From: an archaeon
GTDB taxonomy: Archaea > Asgardarchaeota > Thorarchaeia > Thorarchaeales > Thorarchaeaceae
DNA: 21,264 nucleotides
Assembly (NCBI GenBank): GCA_024275415.1
Contig: JAJRZD010000088.1
Location: 1-21,264 of the forward strand
Reading direction: 5' to 3'
In this document: in pieces, positions 5,837 to 19,642 of the stretch
How the letters are laid out: each line of letters starts with the position of its first letter
Position numbering within the stretch: position 1 is the stretch's first letter
Position numbers and translations under genes: made by a program
Notes under the pieces: generated by a model
Database searches by the model: none
What the model was told of the DNA's origin: nothing
The model's input: the letters and a program-made list of their open reading frames with translations, nothing else

Positions 5837-5920
5837 GTAAGACGGGTGTTTCGGTTCATCTCCCTGTCACAGCTGCTCCTACACGGCTGGATTTCCTTTC
5901 GCTGGCAACACCCGTCTTAC
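5837..5920. other. Long stem-loop with a perfect 14-bp closing stem (structured 3' UTR, ncRNA or MITE-like remnant)
   Basis: GTAAGACGGGTGTT (5837-5850) and AACACCCGTCTTAC (5907-5920) are exact reverse complements; an inner stem CAGCTG/CGGCTG spans 5870-5889. Confidence 0.6.
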
Positions 5921-7224: not shown

Positions 7225-7263
7225 TTTATTGTTTTGCCGCCGTATGCGGTATGTGGTCATTAC

Positions 7264-7965
7264 ATGAATCTTCAGATCATGGCTCCGGCTTACACTGATC
7301 GAGCCCATTTCTTCCTATTTGAACTTTCTAAGGGAGAAGAGGGATTTTCCATCCAGGAGATTCTAAAGAGTTTGGCGTTCTCAATGGTCGACTCGAGCGA
7401 GTGGGTCGATAAGGAGATAGGAACTCGAATCCGACTATTTTCTTCTTCATCTATGCCTGAATACTTTGGGGGATGTATTCTGCCATCTCACGAGATTACC
7501 AAACAGATGTGCCGCCTTGCAAGGGCATTCACATGGACATCTCGGGCATTTGATGTATTGTTCCTGCTATTCATCGCAGAATGGCTTATCGGGCTTCTTG
7601 TATTCGTTGGTGGACTGTCAGTCTTTTTGTCATATATTGGAATACTCATTGCCGTGACATTCTTGTGCTTCCTCATCAATGCGATATTTGCGATCTTGTT
7701 ATTTTTCTATCTTGACCGAAAATCGACTCACCACAACATAGAGATTGCACACAATGTCATCAGATTGTTACTGGAGGGACTGGCAGAGCGGTACAGGGAT
7801 GGATCTATAACTGCAATCAACATTTGCACAAAGCTCGGAAATCGATCTATTGCACATCATCTTCCGAGGGAATTCATAGAAAAGATGAAACCTCTTGGAG
7901 TAAACCACTTGGAAATGGACGCTCGCATCTGGGAGAGTTTTCACTCCAATGGCGCGCTCCAATAA
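7264..7965 (+). CDS. Hypothetical membrane protein (two central TM helices)
   Basis: Long ORF with hydrophobic segments FDVLFLLFIAEWLIGLLVF and YIGILIAVTFLCFLINAIFAILLFFYL. Start uncertain (TTG 7234 or ATG 7264). Confidence 0.65.
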   Translation: MNLQIMAPAYTDRAHFFLFELSKGEEGFSIQEILKSLAFSMVDSSEWVDKEIGTRIRLFSSSSMPEYFGGCILPSHEITKQMCRLARAFTWTSRAFDVLFLLFIAEWLIGLLVFVGGLSVFLSYIGILIAVTFLCFLINAIFAILLFFYLDRKSTHHNIEIAHNVIRLLLEGLAERYRDGSITAINICTKLGNRSIAHHLPREFIEKMKPLGVNHLEMDARIWESFHSNGALQ

Positions 7966-8081: not shown

Positions 8082-8831
8082 ATGGGGCCATTTCTTCTGG
8101 CACTCTGTGGCATCCCAGCCAGTGGTAAGACGACATTCGCTAGCAGGATTCAGGAACGTTTCTCCTCTGAGGAATGCGAAACAATGCTCGTGAGTACAGA
8201 TGAGTGGAGAAACGACTCGTACTATTCCAACTTCATACCTGAGAAGGAGAATGCAGTGCGGAAAAATGCATTGGAGAAGACAAGACAGGCTCTCTTGCAG
8301 AGAATAAACGTCATTCATGACGACACCAACTATTATGCCAGTATGCGTCATGATCTATATAATCTCGCAATTGAGCACGCGTACGCCTTCGGGGTCGTCT
8401 TTATTCGAACGCCGTTAGATATTGCACTAGAGTGGAATAGGGACAGAGAGAGACCCTTACCGGACAGCGTCATCGAAAAGATCAACGATAGATTAGATGT
8501 GCCTGGTTCCAAATACACTTGGGATACACCCATAGCCACGGTCGATATGGCGAAAGACGACATTGATGGCTGTATAGATACCATCAAGAAGAAGCTTGGT
8601 ATCCTCAGACCGTCCAGACCATTGGGCAAGCCAGTTCCCGGTGATGCTGAGTTTTATGATGGACTTACACGTAGGATAGTCCACGAATTCCTTAAGGAAC
8701 GAAAAGAACTACGGAGGACTCGTGAAATCAGTAGGATCAGAAAACAGGTTCTGAAAGAGGCAATCACGCATAGAATGGACTCTGAGGAGGTAAGGTGGAC
8801 GTTGTTATCAAGATTGGCGAAAGTGGAATGA
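8082..8831 (+). CDS. pstK: L-seryl-tRNA(Sec) kinase (PSTK)
   Basis: P-loop LCGIPASGKTT, DDTNYYASMR motif typical of PSTK, WNRDR lid region and an archaeal-type helical C-terminal domain; directly adjacent to tRNA-Sec and SepSecS. Confidence 0.92.
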   Translation: MGPFLLALCGIPASGKTTFASRIQERFSSEECETMLVSTDEWRNDSYYSNFIPEKENAVRKNALEKTRQALLQRINVIHDDTNYYASMRHDLYNLAIEHAYAFGVVFIRTPLDIALEWNRDRERPLPDSVIEKINDRLDVPGSKYTWDTPIATVDMAKDDIDGCIDTIKKKLGILRPSRPLGKPVPGDAEFYDGLTRRIVHEFLKERKELRRTREISRIRKQVLKEAITHRMDSEEVRWTLLSRLAKVE

Positions 8832-8922
8832 TGGCGGCTCCTCAAGAGAATCGAACTCTAATCGCTTGCACGATCATGGGTTTGAAGCCCACGGCCCGGG
8901 ACCACCCGTGCTATGAGGAGCC
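8832..8922 (-). tRNA. selC: tRNA-Sec (anticodon UCA), archaeal 9/4 fold, CCA encoded
   Basis: Minus strand: GGCTCCTCA TA GCACGGG TGGT CCCGGGC C GTGGG CTTCAAA CCCAT G ATCGT GCAA GCGAT T AGAG TTCGATT CTCT TGAGGAGCC G CCA. This gives a 9-bp acceptor stem, 4-bp T stem, 7-bp D stem with a 4-nt loop (one A.G mismatch), TCA anticodon (8885-8883), long variable arm with a GCAA loop, and G73. Confidence 0.97.
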
Positions 8923-8975: not shown

Positions 8976-9638
8976 TTAGATGTATCGCTTTATGACCTCG
9001 ATGGTTTCCTGTTTCCATTCGACGCTTTTCTTGGCCAAAGCGGTAGCAATGTCTCCTGGCAACGGTTCCTCGCGTGGCAATGGTTCGATTTTTGAAAGCC
9101 AGCCACTAGTATGGAGGGTGATAGGATGAAGGCCTTCACCTTCTGTCGCCTTGATTATCATCTCCCTACCGTGTGCTACCTGATAATAGACCTCGGAAAG
9201 GGGGCGTTTTTCGAGGATTTGATGTACCAGCCTGTCCCAACATGCCTTGGCCAGTAGCGCCCGTCGCACACGACTCTTCTGTGGTGTGCCCAAAACGCGG
9301 TATTTGTCTAGAGCTGCATTGATGTCAGCGGAAACCGATTCGATGTATGCTGTGATTTCCTGCTCGTTGTCACCTCGGACTTCCAGTTCGATGCTGGCAT
9401 TGTTCCCTTTGACAGAGAAAGTGACGTGCATCGAGTTCTTCTCGGAACGCAATGTAAATCTTGCAGTCCCATGGAATTCTTGGCTCTCGGGTTCGGAATA
9501 GTTTGACAGATATACTCCTGGCGCGGATGCAATCACATACCAGGCAACTCGGAATACCACTGAGGGGTCATCCACATAAGGGATGGTTGCAGTGGCACTA
9601 TAAGGCAACGCGTCATCGTTCAATGGCGGACTCTCCAT
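8976..9638 (-). CDS. Uncharacterised 220-aa protein embedded in the Sec operon
   Basis: ATG-initiated ORF starting 18 nt after the SepSecS stop and ending 53 nt before tRNA-Sec on the same strand. N-terminal half has an alpha/beta pattern, C-terminal half is helical. No family recognised. Confidence 0.8.
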   Translation of the reverse strand: MESPPLNDDALPYSATATIPYVDDPSVVFRVAWYVIASAPGVYLSNYSEPESQEFHGTARFTLRSEKNSMHVTFSVKGNNASIELEVRGDNEQEITAYIESVSADINAALDKYRVLGTPQKSRVRRALLAKACWDRLVHQILEKRPLSEVYYQVAHGREMIIKATEGEGLHPITLHTSGWLSKIEPLPREEPLPGDIATALAKKSVEWKQETIEVIKRYI

Positions 9639-9656: not shown

Positions 9657-10967
9657 TTACTTGCTGATTTCCTTATAGAGTTTGGTTGTAGCAGCCTCTA
9701 TATCATTCTTTGTTGCACCTATTGCTGCGTTCATGACCAGATAGGACACTGGATAGTGGTAGATGCAGGATCCATACTGCCCAGACCCCACCGCCCTTGG
9801 TCCTGTGACACGCCTATTGTAGAGGCGTCCACCCAATGACTGTGCGTCAATGCCCTCCAAAGTCATGGCGCAGGCAATCGGGTTTGTTGTGCTCAGGATG
9901 CGCTGGCCTATCCTTTCAGCCAGCTCTGTCAGCCGTTCCTCAAGCAGAGTACGGCATTCCACCTGCTGAGACCTCAGGGTTTCATATCTCCGCAGCCCCA
10001 AAGATAGGAGCGATGCAAGGGTCTGAACGAGTGGGGCAGCACTAGCCCTGCCTGCATAGGACTCGGCAGTTTTCTCAATAATCTCCTCATTTGGTGATAC
10101 AAGGATTGATGAGCCAACAGGAGTCAGGAAGTTCTTGTCACCGCTTTGTATGATCATATCAACCCTTCCAGCGTCAATGGCGCTGCGAATCGTCTGCATG
10201 ATCTCAAGGGACTGAACGCCATATGCATTGTTGACGAACAATGGGACGTCGTGGCTCTGACAGAGCTTGGCAATCTCTTTTATCGGGTCAGGTGTCCGTG
10301 GTGGAAAGAAGGTGGTCGTGGCAAGGACGGCGGTGTTGTCTTCTCTGGAAATGGCATTCTCCAAATAGCCCAGATCGGCGTCCACTGCATCATCGTTCAA
10401 GACGGTCGGAGTAATTTCCAAATCGACACCAGCGATGGCAATCGCCCGTTTAGGCGAAGTGTGGTCTATGCGGGGGAACAGTATCTTCTTGACGTTGTAA
10501 TGTTGTCGGAGAGCTGCTGCTACCAAGGCCAATGACATGCCTGTAGAAAGTGGTAGGACGATACCATACCGGACATTGGGAACCCCTAGTCGCTTCATCG
10601 CATCGAGAGCGACTTGATTCACGATTTGCTGCATTATTGATGCGCCTGGCGCCTTGGGTTGCGGGGCAGTAACATGACCACTTCGGCCTATCCCATGATT
10701 GAAACCTGCTGCTAGCTCAGAAACCAATGGTGATGCTATCCGGGCCTCTCGCTCGCCCACTCTAGCTGCCTCGGGATCTTTGTCCGTGTCAAGGGATGCA
10801 AGTACTTTCAGGATCAGGTCAATTTGGAAATCGCTCAACGACTCATCCAAGAACCTTCGCTGATGGAGAACCTTACGGAGAGGCCCCAAAAGAGCCCCTA
10901 GTGTGGTTTCACTACGCCGAAGCATATTCTTGGGTATCAAATCCTCAATCATCTTCTCAATGTCCAA
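9657..10967 (-). CDS. spcS: O-phosphoseryl-tRNA(Sec) selenium transferase (SepSecS)
   Basis: GEREAR, HGIGRSG...QPKAPG, PRIDHTS, NNAYG, PLP-lysine motif QSGDKNF, YAGRAS and RRVTGPR, all typical of archaeal/eukaryotic SepSecS. Confidence 0.96.
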   Translation of the reverse strand: MDIEKMIEDLIPKNMLRRSETTLGALLGPLRKVLHQRRFLDESLSDFQIDLILKVLASLDTDKDPEAARVGEREARIASPLVSELAAGFNHGIGRSGHVTAPQPKAPGASIMQQIVNQVALDAMKRLGVPNVRYGIVLPLSTGMSLALVAAALRQHYNVKKILFPRIDHTSPKRAIAIAGVDLEITPTVLNDDAVDADLGYLENAISREDNTAVLATTTFFPPRTPDPIKEIAKLCQSHDVPLFVNNAYGVQSLEIMQTIRSAIDAGRVDMIIQSGDKNFLTPVGSSILVSPNEEIIEKTAESYAGRASAAPLVQTLASLLSLGLRRYETLRSQQVECRTLLEERLTELAERIGQRILSTTNPIACAMTLEGIDAQSLGGRLYNRRVTGPRAVGSGQYGSCIYHYPVSYLVMNAAIGATKNDIEAATTKLYKEISK

Positions 10968-12354
10968 ATGAGAACTCCTCCTCTCTCAAAGTTTCATAGA
11001 ATACCTTGTCATTCACATCGACTGACCGGGTAAAGGTCGCTGAAATGACCCCACGAGTGCCAAAGGTGCCAGTCACTTTGCCAGAATGACCAGAAGCAGT
11101 GGACAAACTATGCCCCTGCAAACGCTCTGCAATCTCTTTCGTTGAAGCCAGTCCTTCGACAAGTACATCGTTCTCTCGGATACGAAACACCGTACCCTTA
11201 CGAACTCGTTGCTTGAATAGGATAATCCTGTCGGGCACTTCAGTAACGGTGCCGGTTCCAACAATCCTCATGGCAGTGGGACGCAGGTCGGTTCGCATCA
11301 GTAAGACACGCATTCCAGGTTCCACTCCAATCTTCTTCTGAAGGAGGACAGCTGCCAAGAACAGCGAGTCCTGAGCCTCGTCCAGTACGACTCGGATACC
11401 ATCAGAACGGGTTATGAAAGGGACAATTTCGGCAGTCACTGTAGGCATTCCAATAGTGGCACTCAACACCATACGTTTGGTTACTTTCCCTCGATAGAGT
11501 GGATTCAGTGAGATTGTAGCGTAGACCTTGTCGCTTGCGGGGAGTGAGCTGGGAGCACAGAGATAGTCGCCCCTATGAATGGACTCACTCTTGACATCCG
11601 GGATGTTAACACCGACACGGTTTCCGGCCTGTGCTTTCTCCTGTTGTTCACCGAAGACTTGAATGGAACGTACCCGAACGCGGTCGCTGTGTGGGACGAG
11701 TTGAACAGTGCCTCCTGTGCTGATGGATCCCCTAAGAATCGTCCCAGTCACGACCGTGCCATGTCCCTTCTTCGGGAAAGCATGGTCGATTGGCATGAGG
11801 AACGGGTTCTGCGTGTCCCGAATATGTGGCTTGACAATTCGATAGATAAGAGACTTGAGATCGTCAATTCCTTTGCCGGTCTTGGCGGACACATTGACGA
11901 TATCATAGTTCTTGATGCCTGAGCCATCAAGAATTGAGCGTATGCGACCGGCCATTCGCTCAAGTTCTAGTTCACCAACTAAGTCGCTCTTCGTGACTGC
12001 GACAATGACGGGGTCGATGTCGAAAGCGCCAAGGATGATAATGTGCTCGCCAGTCTGAATCTTTGGTCCCTCGTCAGCCGCGACACAGACTATGGCAGCA
12101 TCGATGATACTCGCACCTGCGACCACACTTCGGATGAGATCGGCATGACCGGGAGCGTCTACGAGCGTGACGAGATATTCATGGAGCTTGAACATAGTGA
12201 AGCCAAGGTCAATGGTTATCCCACGCTCTTCTGATTGGGGATGCTTGTCCAGACCAGCCGTGGAAACTTTTTCACTCATAGCCCGTGCGAGTTCTGTTTT
12301 CCCGTGATCGATATGACCAACAAGCCCAATATGAACCGGGATGTCTTTTGCCAT
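10957..12354 (-). CDS. selB: Selenocysteine-specific elongation factor SelB/aSelB (archaeal type)
   Basis: GHIDHGKT, ERGITIDLGF, DAPGH and TKSD G-motifs, EF-Tu-like domains II and III, and a short C-terminal barrel-type domain IV (no bacterial winged-helix tail). Overlaps the SepSecS start by 11 nt. Confidence 0.94.
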   Translation of the reverse strand: MAKDIPVHIGLVGHIDHGKTELARAMSEKVSTAGLDKHPQSEERGITIDLGFTMFKLHEYLVTLVDAPGHADLIRSVVAGASIIDAAIVCVAADEGPKIQTGEHIIILGAFDIDPVIVAVTKSDLVGELELERMAGRIRSILDGSGIKNYDIVNVSAKTGKGIDDLKSLIYRIVKPHIRDTQNPFLMPIDHAFPKKGHGTVVTGTILRGSISTGGTVQLVPHSDRVRVRSIQVFGEQQEKAQAGNRVGVNIPDVKSESIHRGDYLCAPSSLPASDKVYATISLNPLYRGKVTKRMVLSATIGMPTVTAEIVPFITRSDGIRVVLDEAQDSLFLAAVLLQKKIGVEPGMRVLLMRTDLRPTAMRIVGTGTVTEVPDRIILFKQRVRKGTVFRIRENDVLVEGLASTKEIAERLQGHSLSTASGHSGKVTGTFGTRGVISATFTRSVDVNDKVFYETLREEEFSFGH

Positions 12355-14405: not shown

Positions 14406-14627
14406 CTAGTGACCCCATCTCATACGTTCGGGCTTCGTTTCCTTCTTGAATGCCTTCTTCACTTTCTTCCAATGGTCTTGACAGAGATAGGTCTTCCTCT
14501 TACGCGCGTCTTTGACCTTCAATCCTGAAGATGTGATGCTTTGTCCGATACGCTCTGTAGAGAATGATCTTTTCGAGGGTTTTTCGCACCCTACTATGCT
14601 GCAGGTTTTTTCTTTGGATCGTTCCAC
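14406..14627 (-). CDS. Small basic zinc-finger-like protein (C-x4-C...C-x2-H)
   Basis: CSIVGC...YLCQDHW with a Lys/Arg-rich tail; resembles a conserved small archaeal family. GTG start. Confidence 0.7.
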   Translation of the reverse strand: MERSKEKTCSIVGCEKPSKRSFSTERIGQSITSSGLKVKDARKRKTYLCQDHWKKVKKAFKKETKPERMRWGH

Positions 14628-14686: not shown

Positions 14687-15673
14687 TCAATGCCCTCGAG
14701 GAGTCAGAACCGGACCCTGTGAGAAATCAAAGAGAACCATCTCATCGGTTCCCAATCGCAGGGAGAGTTGTTTTGAGTCATTCACGACCCCAATCTTGAC
14801 TGCGGTCATCTTGTGGGCATTGGCAATGCTTGTGATTTTATCAAGTTCTTCACGGGATGCACTGACAAGAAAGCCTGACGATATGAACATCCGAATCCAA
14901 TCAGTAAGTGGGATTGATGGTGGACATGACGCATTGACTACATCGAGGTCAATCGTACCTCCTTTCCAAGAATACTCGACGAGCATCCCAGCTGTCCCGA
15001 CAAGTCCGGCGACAGAAACATCCTTTGAAGCATGAAGGAGACCTTTTTCGGCTAAATCGAGCATGGTTGTGAAACGCAGGATGACAGACTCTGAGTCCTT
15101 GTGTGTAACAGTGTCCCATCCTAGAGGATAACTGGAACCCCTCTTCCCTATCGAATCGAATAGAAGGATTAGGACATCATCATCCTCAGCCCCTCCAGCC
15201 GTTAGCATGTGATTCCTTTTTACGGTCCCAGTCGCCGACCCCACGACATAGGTAGAGCTGGAGCTAGGGTTAGTGTGTCCTCGTACAATGGGTACTTGGA
15301 ATCTCTGGGAGCCCTGTATCAGCCCTTCGAGAATAGCATCACCAATCTTTTGATCGGAGTACGACAATGCAACGGCAAAGGAGGTCGGACGCCCCCCAGC
15401 TGCATAGATGTCCATGGTGTTAGCTAGGACCACATTGAAACCTGCTGAAAAGGGATGGTTCAGACAAAGCTCCTCAACGATAGAATCTGTTGTAAGAAGA
15501 ATCACCTCATCGGAGTCAGTGCCTATGGCAGCCGAATCCTCTCCGAGAGAGTGAGGAGTATTGCCATTGTAAGACTGCTCACGCAACTTGCGAAGGATAT
15601 CGGGAAGGACGAACTTTCGAGAGATCCCATCAAAGGTGTGCAAGAGATGAATAATCTCTTTCAGTTCTGTCAA
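14687..15673 (-). CDS. AIR synthase-related protein (PurM/HypE/ThiL/SelD superfamily; methanogenesis marker 2 / sll0787-like)
   Basis: FDGISRK N-terminus, GEDSAAI, TTDSI, LANTMDIYAAGGRP, GHT, and SKDVSVAGLVGT motifs. Lacks the SelD Cys/Sec-x-x-Lys motif. Confidence 0.8.
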   Translation of the reverse strand: MTELKEIIHLLHTFDGISRKFVLPDILRKLREQSYNGNTPHSLGEDSAAIGTDSDEVILLTTDSIVEELCLNHPFSAGFNVVLANTMDIYAAGGRPTSFAVALSYSDQKIGDAILEGLIQGSQRFQVPIVRGHTNPSSSSTYVVGSATGTVKRNHMLTAGGAEDDDVLILLFDSIGKRGSSYPLGWDTVTHKDSESVILRFTTMLDLAEKGLLHASKDVSVAGLVGTAGMLVEYSWKGGTIDLDVVNASCPPSIPLTDWIRMFISSGFLVSASREELDKITSIANAHKMTAVKIGVVNDSKQLSLRLGTDEMVLFDFSQGPVLTPRGH

Positions 15674-15900: not shown

Positions 15901-16212
15901 CTAGAATTCTAGCTTCCCACGTAGCTTCTTCGCATACTTGTCGGGGATAGCAGAAGGATCTTCTATAAGATCATGCTCTGGAACTGTGACAACTCTTTTG
16001 GGGATTTTTTCCCGTTTACATCTTCCGTTGTCAGTCATTTTTCTAATGGTGCACTTGCTATACTGGCACCAAGCTCCATCACACACATCATCAAAAGATG
16101 TGCACCATGCAACCTTTTTGCCGCTTTTCTTACGGAATTTCAGGGTTCCACGGTCTTGTATGCATCTAAAAGATTCACAAAAAGGGGTACATTCTTTGAA
16201 CCCGTCCATCAT
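15901..16212 (-). CDS. Cys-rich conserved hypothetical protein (probable metal binding)
   Basis: Eight Cys in the pattern CTPFC..FRC...WC....DVC.GAWC.Y.KC...DNGRC. ATG 16212 follows an AGGAG; alternative ATG at 16230. Confidence 0.7.
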   Translation of the reverse strand: MMDGFKECTPFCESFRCIQDRGTLKFRKKSGKKVAWCTSFDDVCDGAWCQYSKCTIRKMTDNGRCKREKIPKRVVTVPEHDLIEDPSAIPDKYAKKLRGKLEF

Positions 16213-16233
16213 GAAATCTACTCCTATCATCGT

Positions 16234-17064
16234 TCATTTCGATTTCTTTGCCAACGTGATTGTTTCTTCTAGCGATCTCTTTCCACCTTCAATGATACTG
16301 ATTGCCTTGGAAAGCTCTCTGTTCATGGAGTCATAGGCAGTCTGAGATACATCACCAATCTTGAGTTTCGCGTCAAGCCTGCTGATCTCCCTTCGCAACC
16401 GTTTGATCTCATTGTCCATGGACTTGAGCCACTGCTTAGAGGTCTTGAGTGCTGAAACGAGATCCTTTTGCAAATACTTGATTTTCATTTGCAATCGTTT
16501 CTTCTCCTCCTGAAATACTACTGGATCCAGTGTCTTCTCAGCAGACTTCAGCTTCTCCAGCTTGGCAGTTTGGATCATGAGTTGAGAGAGCGTGTTCTTT
16601 AGAGGTATCTCACCCTCCACAGACCGAAGCTTTGCCCTACGGGATTTGGCTTCATCAAGTTCATGGCGAAGGTCACGCGCCCGAGAGATGAGGAGATCCT
16701 TGTCTGCATGTTCGAGGTCTAACGCATGACGTGTCGAGCTTATCTCTGCAATGATACGATCCAACTCCTCATCAAGTACCTTCATTTCTGCTCTTGCAAA
16801 GATGATGGCCATTGTTTGAGAGTCCATCCCATCAATTGAGAACTGGAACTCGGGGTAAGAGAGATGCTCTGAAATATGGGGTTCCTCTATTTCTTCGTAG
16901 ATCTTGTCAAGCTCAGCTCGATGTGCTTCCAGCACCGCTTCAGGTTCATCGTCCACTGCTTTATTTAGTGGCTTTCCACATTCACTGCAGAATCGTCCTG
17001 AAGGAACCTTGGCACTACAGTGCGGACAGTCTACGAGATTATCGGGCAATCTTTCCCCCACCAT
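16234..17064 (-). CDS. Double zinc-ribbon protein with long coiled coil (C-terminus CdvA-like)
   Basis: CPHC...FCSECG ribbon followed by a heptad-rich helical region ending RLDAKLKIGDVSQTAYDSM. Start ATG 17064 or GTG 17112. Confidence 0.7.
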   Translation of the reverse strand: MVGERLPDNLVDCPHCSAKVPSGRFCSECGKPLNKAVDDEPEAVLEAHRAELDKIYEEIEEPHISEHLSYPEFQFSIDGMDSQTMAIIFARAEMKVLDEELDRIIAEISSTRHALDLEHADKDLLISRARDLRHELDEAKSRRAKLRSVEGEIPLKNTLSQLMIQTAKLEKLKSAEKTLDPVVFQEEKKRLQMKIKYLQKDLVSALKTSKQWLKSMDNEIKRLRREISRLDAKLKIGDVSQTAYDSMNRELSKAISIIEGGKRSLEETITLAKKSK

Positions 17065-17113
17065 ATAAAGCACAAATCGAGCGTTAGAAACGCTCGTCTG
17101 AGTCGGGAACACA

Positions 17114-17434
17114 TCAACTTACTAAGGTAGCAAGCCGACCAGCCACCTGATCCAGTTTGTCTTTCGAGGTAACTATCGAATCAGCACCATAAGTCGGCAA
17201 GACCTTGAGCTCCTCAATCAGTAGTGCGATGGCTTGGCTTGCATCGATGTCTTTCTGATCGAGAGATCCATCAGGGAATGTCAGGGATGCCTCATGCCAT
17301 TTTTCCTTGCTGTCATCAACAGGATAGAGACAGTAAATATAGTCATCATTACTACAGATGAAGGATGGGGTGTTCTCCCAAGCCTGGGCGAGGAGTGCAC
17401 CAAAAGCCTTTGCGTTTTCAGCCTTGTCAGCCAT
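17114..17434 (-). CDS. Hypothetical protein (106 aa)
   Basis: ATG with GGTGA SD, coding-like acidic composition, in a same-strand run. Confidence 0.75.
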   Translation of the reverse strand: MADKAENAKAFGALLAQAWENTPSFICSNDDYIYCLYPVDDSKEKWHEASLTFPDGSLDQKDIDASQAIALLIEELKVLPTYGADSIVTSKDKLDQVAGRLATLVS

Positions 17435-17527
17435 TCAGTATCACCATCGTTGGCTAGATGAGATATGAGGCAATCTGTCAACCAGCCTTATGACCTTTTC
17501 TGACATATAGGTAGATGGAGCCATTCA

Positions 17528-18100
17528 TTATGGCTTGTGCCAAATAAAGGAATAGTAAAATACATCCCCGTCCTCTTTGACAGTGGCAATGATGAACCTC
17601 TTCCTGACGCTGGTCGCAAGCCGTCCCGCTCGTACAATGTCAAGGGGGATGACTCCCTTCCGTTGAGGAATGACGTGGACAAGGAATGGAGCATGATCCT
17701 TTCCCGGACCATGTTCATAGACAGCGAAATCGGTCCCGAATTTCAGGCCAGGGCGTAGGATATAGCCCAGAGAACGTAGGTTCGAGTATACCATAAATCG
17801 GTCTACAAACTCATCGGATTGCTGTCTTCCAATCTTCAAGAGGTCATCAAGGGACAACGGTTCTCCTGAAACAGGATCCCTGACCTGCAATCGACCCTCA
17901 CTAATGAGATATGCACATTCCACTAGCGACAGCTCAAGAGGCTTGTCGAATTCAGGACTCTTTGGTTTCCGTATGCCTACTGGTTGCCCGAAATAGCCGT
18001 TGGCATAGAGTTTCATCCCATCCTGGGGGTTCCACACGATGCCTCGATCGCCAACAAAGTCTGCTGATGCCGGTTTCGAGGACTCGGACAAACTTGCCAC
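17528..18100 (-). CDS. endA: tRNA-intron (splicing) endonuclease
   Basis: LELSLVECAYL, VYSNLRSLGY..RPGLKFGTDFAVY...P...HAPFLV and RLATSVRK, containing the Tyr/His/Lys catalytic triad pattern; single-unit (alpha4-type length) subunit. Confidence 0.93.
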   Translation of the reverse strand: MASLSESSKPASADFVGDRGIVWNPQDGMKLYANGYFGQPVGIRKPKSPEFDKPLELSLVECAYLISEGRLQVRDPVSGEPLSLDDLLKIGRQQSDEFVDRFMVYSNLRSLGYILRPGLKFGTDFAVYEHGPGKDHAPFLVHVIPQRKGVIPLDIVRAGRLATSVRKRFIIATVKEDGDVFYYSFIWHKP

Positions 18101-18101
18101 C

Positions 18102-18791
18102 TTACGTGTTCAATGTCAATGAAAGAGAACGAATCGTGATAGCGACATCCTCGCCAAAGTTTGCGATGTCTTCCATCATGTTCATGAAGTCCCTGAAGCG
18201 TAAGAGTATCCCTATGTCTAGTCCTGAAGGATAGAGGATGGTCACAATCTCCCGAATCAGGATATCGATCTCTTTCTCCAGCGAGCATATCTCATCTACT
18301 TTCTTCATCGAATTCTCCATGTTTATTGACAGGAATCGTACAGCTTCCCGCGCCTCTTTGATCTCATCAATGACTAGCTTACCAAGCCTTTCAATCAGAT
18401 CCTTGAGTTCTCCAGTGGGAGTCCAGGAGGACTTTATTACGGCGTCTAGGTGATTGCAAGCAATCTCTGCGCCGTCCACAAGTTTGTCGGTGTAGTGTAC
18501 AAGTCGCAATAGATCCTCACGTTGCATCAGTGTATGTGCTTTTGCTAGCTCAAGTGTGATGTGACGTTTCACTTCATCGGCCTTTTCCTCAAGTTCGGTG
18601 ACTTTCTTCAAGTCCTCCGTGGACATCGGCTTATTATCACAAAGCCAATCAGGGAGCGCTTTTGCGATGATCTTGTTCGCTGCAAGAGCGATTCGGAAAT
18701 GCTCTTCAAGCATCTGAGTGATGTTCCCGAGCTCGGAGGTGAGGAAACGACTGTTATCAATGACCATCTCGAAGTTTCTCTCCGACCGCAC
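18102..18791 (-). CDS. DUF47 / PhoU-like phosphate transport regulator family protein
   Basis: Duplicated helical repeats with LEEKADEVKR, REDLLRL...D...D, LEKEID and EDIANFGED motifs. Start may be ATG 18767. Confidence 0.85.
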   Translation of the reverse strand: MRSERNFEMVIDNSRFLTSELGNITQMLEEHFRIALAANKIIAKALPDWLCDNKPMSTEDLKKVTELEEKADEVKRHITLELAKAHTLMQREDLLRLVHYTDKLVDGAEIACNHLDAVIKSSWTPTGELKDLIERLGKLVIDEIKEAREAVRFLSINMENSMKKVDEICSLEKEIDILIREIVTILYPSGLDIGILLRFRDFMNMMEDIANFGEDVAITIRSLSLTLNT

Positions 18792-18817
18792 TTCGGTTTT
18801 GGAGTAGATTTAAGTCT

Positions 18818-19642
18818 ATGGTAGGCGCTGAAAACGTCGAGGAAATACAAGTGGAACTCTGGCACATCATAGTTGGGTTGATTCAAGGATTCGTCGAGTG
18901 GCTCCCTATATCCTCAGAAGGGCAGGCAGTGCTGTTCGTCTATAACTTTGGCTCGGTTCCTCCCAGTGAGCTAATTACTCTAGTAGTATGGCTTCATTTG
19001 GGAACGGCACTTGCGGTGATTGCAAGATATCCACGAACCATAGTTGAAGTGCTATCATTGAAAGACAGAGAACTATTTCGCAACTTGCTCGTCGCAACAG
19101 TATGTACTGCGATAACAGCCATTCCACTCTATTTCCTCCTGAAAGATGCAGTGCTACTGTTCCAAGGGGAGATTCTCAATGTCATTGTGGGAGTGCTTCT
19201 TGTAGTTACTGCGGGCGTGTTGTATCTCCCTAAGTTAAGGGCCGATGGGGAGGGCATGGATGAAATCGAGCCAGATGTCCGTGTTTCTGCAATAACGGGA
19301 TTAGTACAGGGTTTCTCAGTATTGCCAGGTCTAAGCAGGTCAGGGTTAACAGTGTCTGCGCTTCTGATGCAGAAAGTGGACAAAGAAACAGCATTGCGAT
19401 TCAGTTTCCTAATGAGTGTCCCGGCAGTGCTCGGGATACTTGCAGTCGAATTCATGACTGGCTCTGCCGTCCTGCCGTCCATCGCTCCTCTAGATTTGCT
19501 GTTCGTAGAGATCATTGTATTCGTTTCAGGATTGGCATCCATGGAGTTCCTCCTCCGCGTCGCAAAAAGGGTCAGCTTCTGGAAATTGTGCTTGCTCTTG
19601 GGAGCAATTGCCATCATCTTTGGACTACCGGCATTAATCTGA
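18818..19642 (+). CDS. uppP: Undecaprenyl-diphosphate phosphatase (UppP/BacA family)
   Basis: GLIQGFVEWLPISSEG, LHLGT, GLVQG..VLPGLSRSG and FSFLMSVPA motifs; multi-pass membrane protein. Confidence 0.92.
   Translation: MVGAENVEEIQVELWHIIVGLIQGFVEWLPISSEGQAVLFVYNFGSVPPSELITLVVWLHLGTALAVIARYPRTIVEVLSLKDRELFRNLLVATVCTAITAIPLYFLLKDAVLLFQGEILNVIVGVLLVVTAGVLYLPKLRADGEGMDEIEPDVRVSAITGLVQGFSVLPGLSRSGLTVSALLMQKVDKETALRFSFLMSVPAVLGILAVEFMTGSAVLPSIAPLDLLFVEIIVFVSGLASMEFLLRVAKRVSFWKLCLLLGAIAIIFGLPALI

Follow-up and report, generated by a model that had tools for sequence, protein, structure and literature searches.

SelAsg, an Asgard-restricted protein encoded beside SepSecS, is retained with and without selenocysteine genes: a possible adaptor rather than a dedicated decoding factor

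Background

In methanogens, the protein SepCysE is the scaffold of the SepRS-SepCysS 'transsulfursome', and its distribution follows that of its pathway. It is small, non-enzymatic and encoded with the PLP enzyme that converts Sep-tRNA, and by analogy it would be the nearest parallel to an adaptor of SepSecS, the corresponding enzyme of the selenocysteine (Sec) pathway. In eukaryotes, the archaeal/eukaryotic type of Sec pathway has accessory factors such as SBP2 and SECp43 (TRNAU1AP), SBP2 having an L7Ae kink-turn-binding domain. [quoted passage not shown] An unnamed hypothetical protein (e.g. MBD3157761.1), exclusive to Asgard archaea and often encoded close to secS, efSec and pstk, was pointed out in the latter work (PMC11227280), and NCBIfam holds an equivalog model, NF045535.1, for a 'Sel_Asgard, putative selenocysteine system protein'. 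The protein of PMC11227280 and the NCBIfam model probably represent the same family.

Here, we analysed a window of 21,264 nucleotides from a Thorarchaeaceae genome in which a member of this family, hereafter SelAsg, is encoded between SepSecS and tRNA-Sec. An initial annotation had proposed this gene as an undescribed Sec component that binds SECIS elements or handles tRNA-Sec, and SelAsg would then fill the same slot as SBP2 and SECp43 among the accessory factors of this type of Sec pathway. We combined family searches, comparison of gene neighbourhoods, phyletic profiling, selection analysis and structure prediction, and found that SelAsg is selected for without Sec and is missing in some Sec users.

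Results and discussion

The SelAsg gene (8976..9638, minus strand) encodes a protein of 220 aa (P0001) from an ATG start, as seen in the open reading frame list and its translation. On the minus strand the gene order is SelB, SepSecS, SelAsg, tRNA-Sec, where archaeal SelB/EFSec (10957..12354, minus; TIGR00475 270 bits; aSelB_III) is the first gene of the array, SepSecS (9657..10967, minus; Pfam SepSecS 2.4e-118; TIGR03531 449 bits) is the upstream partner of SelAsg, and tRNA-Sec with anticodon TCA (8832..8922, minus; ARAGORN; Rfam RF01852 57.9 bits) is convergent with PSTK (8082..8831, plus; TIGR03574 E 7.8e-45, below the curated cut-off). The placement of a 220-aa frame downstream of selB, after SepSecS and before tRNA-Sec was thus correctly described at the outset, and the coordinates also return the reported distances of 18 nt from the SepSecS stop codon to the SelAsg ATG and 53 nt from the SelAsg stop codon to the 5' end of tRNA-Sec. 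From this spacing we infer that SelAsg is co-transcribed with selB-SepSecS. A promoter and terminator scan of the window yielded nothing above shuffled sequences, using a sigma-70 model, which is not applicable to archaea. The SelD gene of the genome (212 bits) is located on another contig (C127:35486-36298, minus; locus L066) and contains one in-frame TGA, making SelD itself a selenoprotein and indicating that the source organism decodes Sec.

P0001 matches NF045535 with 213.3 bits (cut-off 132) over model positions 4-195 of 195, i.e. over the full length, and is a single copy in the source genome as judged by a profile search. No Pfam domain was found in P0001 among the matches inspected at E<=1. 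Its 236 homologues at E<=1e-3 occur as one copy per genome under purifying selection; all organism-labelled ones are from Asgards (Thor-, Loki-, Odin-, Atabey-, Hod- and Hermod- lineages), with one labelled only 'subsurface metagenome', and the closest matches with an organism label are all from Thorarchaeota. The NF045535 model itself matched 281 of 400 Asgard genomes and none of 14 control genomes, among which M. jannaschii. By sequence, then, SelAsg is a real gene and a member of an Asgard-only family, with which it shares the full-length match, the Asgard restriction and the position beside SepSecS, SelB and PSTK, and from which nothing sets it apart. The claim that it is a new component does not hold, since NF045535 already names the family and PMC11227280 flags such a gene; as a Sec candidate by position, the family had been both catalogued and published before.

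Three further features of the window were recorded. A very stable hairpin of 84 nt (5837-5920, plus; -38.9 kcal/mol, z -6.5) lies just 3' of the stop codon of a 201-aa gene, and no SECIS core AUGA...GA was present in its right arm on either strand. A 243-aa open reading frame without family match (7234-7965, plus) is situated between TFB and PSTK and had no homologue in the sampled loci of other lineages. Finally, a PurM-superfamily gene ('AIR synthase-like / methanogenesis marker 2-like'; 14687-15673, minus), below every curated cut-off, has a SelD similarity of 43 bits and is not the SelD of the genome. It is a Sec-cluster neighbour in the sampled, Sec-using Thor, Frey and Atabey loci, standing between SelAsg and a zinc-finger gene in Freyarchaeum and Atabeyarchaeum (L055:8674-9669 and L056:4601-5596) and beside the zinc-finger gene in the window. 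Near SelAsg in the Loki and Sec-lacking loci sampled, no such gene was seen.

In the same 400 Asgard genomes SepSecS was matched 243 times, and coordinates of both genes were available for about 95 genomes, mostly of the Loki family f22 and the Thor family f1 (f1-f30 being GTDB family codes). In every one of these, SelAsg follows immediately after SepSecS and shares its strand, with gaps of about 90-730 nt between the HMM matches. The pair is likewise intact in 9/9 wider loci sampled from seven families (the window, Atabeyarchaeum, Freyarchaeum, f17, f21, two Loki and two Sigyn-type loci), in several of which SelB, PSTK and tRNA-Sec are displaced while SepSecS and SelAsg stay together. Outside Thor, tRNA-Sec was seen next to SelAsg again only in f17 (locus L058). 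SelAsg is therefore a conserved member of the Sec cluster, as proposed from synteny, and not a chance passenger of a single window, which the initial annotation had kept as its alternative. Because the pair is kept where SelB, PSTK and tRNA-Sec have moved, and even among orthologues that, outside Thor, share just 13-27% identity with P0001, the pairing constitutes good evidence, at the level of gene order, for a functional link to SepSecS specifically. No SepSecS indel tracking the presence of SelAsg was found in 12 sequences. Co-folding of SepSecS and SelAsg returned a score of 0.00, which weighs neither way on binding, in a run without controls and with one monomer of each, whereas SepSecS is a tetramer.

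A different picture emerges from the presence and absence of both genes. SelAsg and SepSecS were found in 78/85 and 71/85 genomes of f1 (Thor), 134/135 and 130/135 of f22 (Loki), 14/14 and 13/14 of f21, 4/4 and 3/4 of f23 (Sigyn), 5/6 and 6/6 of f16 (Frey), and 3/3 and 3/3 of both f17 and f4 (Atabey), respectively. SelAsg without any SepSecS was observed in f14 (19/19 versus 0/19), in f29, comprising Odinarchaeum yellowstonii and its kin with one closed 1.42-Mb genome (4/4 versus 0/4), in f6 (3/4 versus 0/4), in f28 (2/3 versus 0/3) and in f2 (1/1 versus 0/1). Five representative genomes with SelAsg and without SepSecS had no PSTK or SelD over the cut-off either. One of the five, an f28 genome without a SepSecS match (G299), has at the end of a contig (C43:4-89) a tRNA-Sec-like match that reaches 50.3 bits against a gathering score of 47, for which reason f28 was not counted as firmly Sec-lacking; the absence of Sec in f28 may be an assembly gap, that in f14 and Odinarchaeum is not. 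Conversely, all five genomes of Candidatus Borrarchaeum (f30), two of them 100% complete, have SepSecS and none has SelAsg (5/5 versus 0/5), and M. jannaschii has SepSecS and no SelAsg match. In Helarchaeota-type families f18 and f19, SepSecS is present and the SelAsg relatives are proteins of 121-144 aa that correspond to the C-terminal domain only (L061:4776-5141, L062:5487-5885 and L063:5251-5685), always encoded between a PEP synthase gene and a uL16 (L10e) gene, away from selB-SepSecS. The expectations that homologues would be uncommon in Sec-lacking genomes and present in all Sec-positive Asgards were thus both contradicted.

The copies in Sec-lacking genomes bear the marks of working genes. 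They occur once per genome, are interleaved with those of Sec users in the tree, where the f2 copy is sister to Thor with a support of 100/99, and keep D135, R158 and E159 in the alignment. Their dN/dS values (NG86) are 0.05-0.10 in f14 at dS 0.3-2.2, higher dS being near saturation, 0.13-0.25 in Odinarchaeum and 0.17-0.22 in f6, next to 0.07-0.33 in Sec-using Loki. By these data, they are functional orthologues under purifying selection. The result is a double dissociation: SelAsg is selected without Sec and missing in some Sec users. Phylogeny, too, accounts for part of the co-occurrence of SelAsg with Sec: some 110 genomes from at least fourteen families (f8, f10, f11 and f13 among them) lack the two together, with no SepSecS found and only two weak SelAsg matches, both in f8. 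In the SepSecS-lacking f2 genome of the Thor order (G311), SelAsg adjoins TFB, a gene likewise found nearby in the window, as though the surrounding Sec genes had been removed. Since SelAsg persists where Sec is lacking, its link to Sec may be no more than inherited gene order. A homologue in genome G115 was examined as a selenoprotein with a 'TGA inside' and rejected, the TGA being its own stop codon and the reading frame being open.

To relate SelAsg to known protein folds, an AlphaFold2 (AF2) model was built on a 36-sequence alignment (pLDDT 94.8, pTM 0.90). The proposed helix/beta-sheet/helix N-terminal half and helical C-terminal half were borne out: a strand, a helix, four strands and a helix are followed by four helices. 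The N-terminal domain (residues 13-114; 9297..9602, minus; AF2 model, VIA-align) is predicted as beta-alpha-beta4-alpha (DSSP E13-20, H25-37, E42-48, E56-64, E69-77, E82-89, H92-114), has a TBP-like or adaptin-appendage-platform-like topology and is acidic (net -6 to -9 according to the boundaries used). In VIA-align it resembles the adaptin appendage platform (3h1z, 1w80) at Z 10.0-10.8, the 10.8 being that of AP-2, while KA1, Bet v 1-like and PGM C-terminal domains were matched as well, such topology matches having Z 9-10.8; the assignment speaks at the level of the modelled fold only and is silent on function. The C-terminal domain (residues 118-217; 8988..9287, minus; AF2 model, VIA-align) is predicted as an up-down four-helix bundle close to the Vps28 C-terminal domain of ESCRT-I (2j9u; Z 11.1, rmsd 2.3, 93/94 residues) and to CheA P1/HPt (Z 11.3), with ties for FbpA and designed bundles and a further match to FAT-like bundles. 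According to the tool, Z 10-11 is the range of common folds and the helical-bundle values lie below its caution line. P0001 has no match to the Vps28 C-terminal domain (PF03997) at E<=1 and no ESCRT genes were found in the neighbourhood.

At full length, a Foldseek search of the model against the PDB gave nothing at E<1e-3, and a profile search of the PDB with the SelAsg alignment gave only designed proteins at E>0.02. The best full-length Foldseek match is the NRD-HEPN part of E. coli RnlA (6y2r, 7aex; E 1.9e-3, probability 0.90), in which a TBP-like alpha/beta domain likewise precedes a helical bundle, but which superposes with a TM of only 0.26-0.28 and an rmsd of about 14 A. Identity as a HEPN RNase was rejected, as the Rx4-6H motif, which HEPN domains have where the last bundle helix starts, is missing: R158, the only invariant Arg, lies in helix 147-164 with no conserved His after it.

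Nearly all conserved residues of the 36-sequence alignment (D135, Y151, R158, E159, W180, W208 and K209) are situated in the bundle. R158 is invariant (36/36) and with E159 (35/36) forms the only invariant or near-invariant pair of the family, encoded by codons AGG GAG (9162..9167, minus; motif A-R-E in the alignment); it belongs to the second bundle helix within the motif A-(H/D/x)-(G/A)-R-E, the preceding His being specific to Thor. The conserved polar residues might, instead of forming a binding site, be buried as a structural network. No conserved Cys was found in the alignment of the family, and a role as selenium or sulfur relay was rejected on that ground.

These features bear directly on the possibility that SelAsg is a dedicated Sec-decoding factor, which like SBP2 or SECp43 would bind SECIS or tRNA-Sec and link them to SelB. 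Its position within selB-SepSecS-SelAsg-tRNA-Sec, the conserved adjacency to SepSecS, the vacancy left by SBP2 in archaea and a basic helix in the Thor proteins all speak for such a role. Of the basic patch noted initially (QKSRVRRALLAK, residues 120-131), its presence in P0001 was confirmed and its conservation proved to be confined to Thorarchaeia: against a charge of +3 to +5 in Thor, Loki proteins have 0 to +2 and that of Freyarchaeum has -1. The pI is 4.8 to 9.3 across the family. Neither L7Ae nor any other RNA-binding family was among the Pfam matches of P0001 at E<=1, the anticipated L7Ae-like or other RNA-binding fold did not turn up in the structure search, and no conserved positive surface and no catalytic or nucleotide-binding signature were found; none of this points, as far as the model goes, to RNA binding or catalysis. 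Compared to SBP2 and SECp43, SelAsg thus lacks both L7Ae and RRM domains, is modelled with two domains of different topology, and shows neither a conserved basic surface nor co-distribution with Sec. An SBP2-type factor would occur with eukaryote-like SECIS elements and not in the absence of Sec, and SelAsg fails on both sides: it is missing in Borrarchaeum, which uses eukaryote-like SECIS elements (PMC11227280), and is selected in lineages such as f14 and Odinarchaeum without SepSecS, PSTK or SelD over the cut-off. As Helarchaeota have a C-domain relative only, and tRNA-Sec adjacency is not kept beyond Thor and f17, we consider a decoding role of this kind very improbable; SelAsg is probably not the missing Sec-decoding factor, and the proposal of a SECIS-binding or tRNA-Sec-handling protein is not upheld.

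The two-domain module of SelAsg is reused in other proteins. Most Loki genomes contain a second, weak profile match to SelAsg, corresponding to the last ~200 residues of ~790-aa proteins (e.g. L050:4929-7295 and L051:5268-7640, both minus) with winged helices of the DDRGK, UFL1 and PCI types in their N-terminal parts. In eukaryotes, domains of the DDRGK/UFL1 type belong to UFMylation, and winged helices of the PCI/UFL1/DDRGK type mostly bind proteins. HHalign relates SelAsg to the fused Loki module with 98.4% probability (E 9e-15), the R-E pair being missing in the latter, and the fused paralogues score 24.3 and 22.6 bits against Pfam VPS28 (cut-off 24.5). In AFDB and the ESM Atlas, the module or its N-terminal domain ends Asgard TPR, HEAT, zinc-ribbon and 'ArsR' proteins. 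This modular reuse fits a docking module. The ~790-aa Loki proteins are encoded beside DsbD-like and GT87 membrane proteins.

A second conserved neighbour of SelAsg, new in the present analysis, is a small, basic zinc-finger protein of 72-81 aa with the motif C-x4-C...C-x2-H (C2CH), represented in the window by a SAP30-like protein of 73 aa (14406..14627, minus; 63 bits). It is the sole recurrent neighbour of SelAsg in Sec-lacking lineages, where besides it a CLC channel, a HerA-like protein, a CoA ligase, IleRS, PEP synthase and uL16 were seen and none of them recurrently. The zinc-finger gene is directly adjacent to SelAsg, at 24-93 nt, in 14/14 Sec-lacking genomes examined and also in Sigyn-type genomes, and lies at 1.5-5 kb in Thor, including the window, and in Loki (other loci: L046:7727-7951, L047:5645-5863, L048:8427-8672 and L045:7390-7614). 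In Freyarchaeum and Atabeyarchaeum the order on one strand is selB-SepSecS-SelAsg-(PurM-family gene)-zinc finger. The best solved relative by profile is the zinc finger of SAP30L/SAP30 (E 0.028, below significance by sequence), and with a model of pLDDT 82.7 the top three Foldseek matches are SAP30/SAP30L (probability 0.77-0.97, TM 0.49-0.55); the protein has no Pfam family, with weak matches to Pfam THAP and Rtr1. The SAP30/SAP30L zinc finger is a eukaryotic one, of the Sin3-HDAC complex. No publication joining SAP30 and Asgard was found in the literature searched, and the zinc-finger protein may be an unreported eukaryote-like protein.

Given this neighbour, SelAsg might be the sensor or co-factor of a DNA-binding zinc finger, both controlling neighbouring genes and, where present, the Sec genes. 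The proximity of the zinc finger in nearly all SelAsg lineages would suit this, as would its resemblance to the DNA-binding SAP30 finger (TM 0.50-0.55 at the fold probability of 0.97), the fusion of SelAsg-like modules to winged-helix arrays, one of them annotated 'ArsR family' in AFDB, and the ligand binding often seen in small alpha/beta domains shaped like the N-terminal domain (cf. the Bet v 1-like matches). Yet the zinc finger is distributed far wider than SelAsg, occurring in 292/400 genomes (f11 22/22 and Borrarchaeum 4/5 among them), its SAP30 similarity is below significance by sequence, and the fused proteins have winged helices of the PCI/UFL1/DDRGK kind, mostly protein binders in eukaryotes, so that we regard a regulatory pair as quite unlikely.

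The zinc finger also raises the question whether SepSecS matters to SelAsg at all. Homologues of window genes 15901-19642, then the zinc finger, then SelAsg form an array that the window shares with Sec-lacking Odinarchaeum and f14, which indicates that the neighbourhood of SelAsg and zinc finger is old, with or without Sec genes. SelAsg could accordingly be a general Asgard protein that works with the zinc finger and is a passenger of this ancient array, its adjacency to SepSecS being inherited order with no link to Sec: in Odinarchaeum and f14 the zinc finger abuts SelAsg with selB-SepSecS simply missing, the arrangement beside TFB in f2 looks like an excision of the Sec genes, and the distribution of SelAsg tracks lineage as much as Sec. 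Against it, the SepSecS-SelAsg pair survives with short gaps in Loki, f21 and Sigyn-type genomes, where selB, PSTK, tRNA-Sec and zinc finger have all moved, and it does so among strongly diverged orthologues, whereas unlinked neighbours rarely remain adjacent so long. We therefore deem a mere passenger rather unlikely, if less so than the regulatory pair.

The reading that we tentatively prefer, and to which we give somewhat less than an even chance, is that SelAsg is an adaptor coupled to SepSecS which is not dedicated to Sec and whose core role, probably played together with the zinc finger, is independent of Sec. SelAsg would be a soluble, two-domain, non-enzymatic protein-protein adaptor, a reading prompted by the lack of enzyme features and by the modular reuse. 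The folds matched by its two domains, namely the adaptin appendage platform, the Vps28 C-terminal domain, HPt and FAT-like bundles, are well-known modules of protein interaction, although such matches at Z 10-11 are common. In Sec-using Thor-, Loki-, Sigyn-, Frey- and Atabeyarchaeia, it would be co-expressed with SepSecS and work with it, docking via the polar cluster D135, Y151, R158, E159 and K209 of the bundle and thereby stabilising SepSecS or organising the hand-over around it. Since orthologues are kept under selection in Odinarchaeum, f14, f6 and f2 without SepSecS, SelAsg would not be dedicated to Sec decoding, and since Borrarchaeum and M. jannaschii do without it, it would not be required for Sec either; its role there may be that of an accessory, with a core activity that is independent of Sec and probably shared with the SAP30-like zinc finger. 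In this respect SelAsg differs from SepCysE, as its distribution does not follow its pathway. A bolder extension, which we regard as a long shot, is that SelAsg and the zinc finger form a two-part Asgard adaptor, in which the zinc finger binds nucleic acid (the tRNA with its long variable arm, SECIS RNA or the ribosome) and SelAsg binds SepSecS or SelB, standing in for SECp43/SBP2 in most Sec-using Asgards and having a second, Sec-independent job in Odinarchaeum and others.

Conclusions

The SelAsg family is the obvious positional candidate for an SBP2-like adaptor in Asgard archaea and has already been labelled so. Its double dissociation from Sec, together with a build that resembles an adaptor and not an RNA binder, makes it less likely to be the decoding factor that is sought, and shifts attention to the binding of SepSecS and to the newly noticed zinc-finger partner. 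Should SelAsg prove to bind SepSecS, the Sec-synthesis step of archaea would have its first accessory protein.
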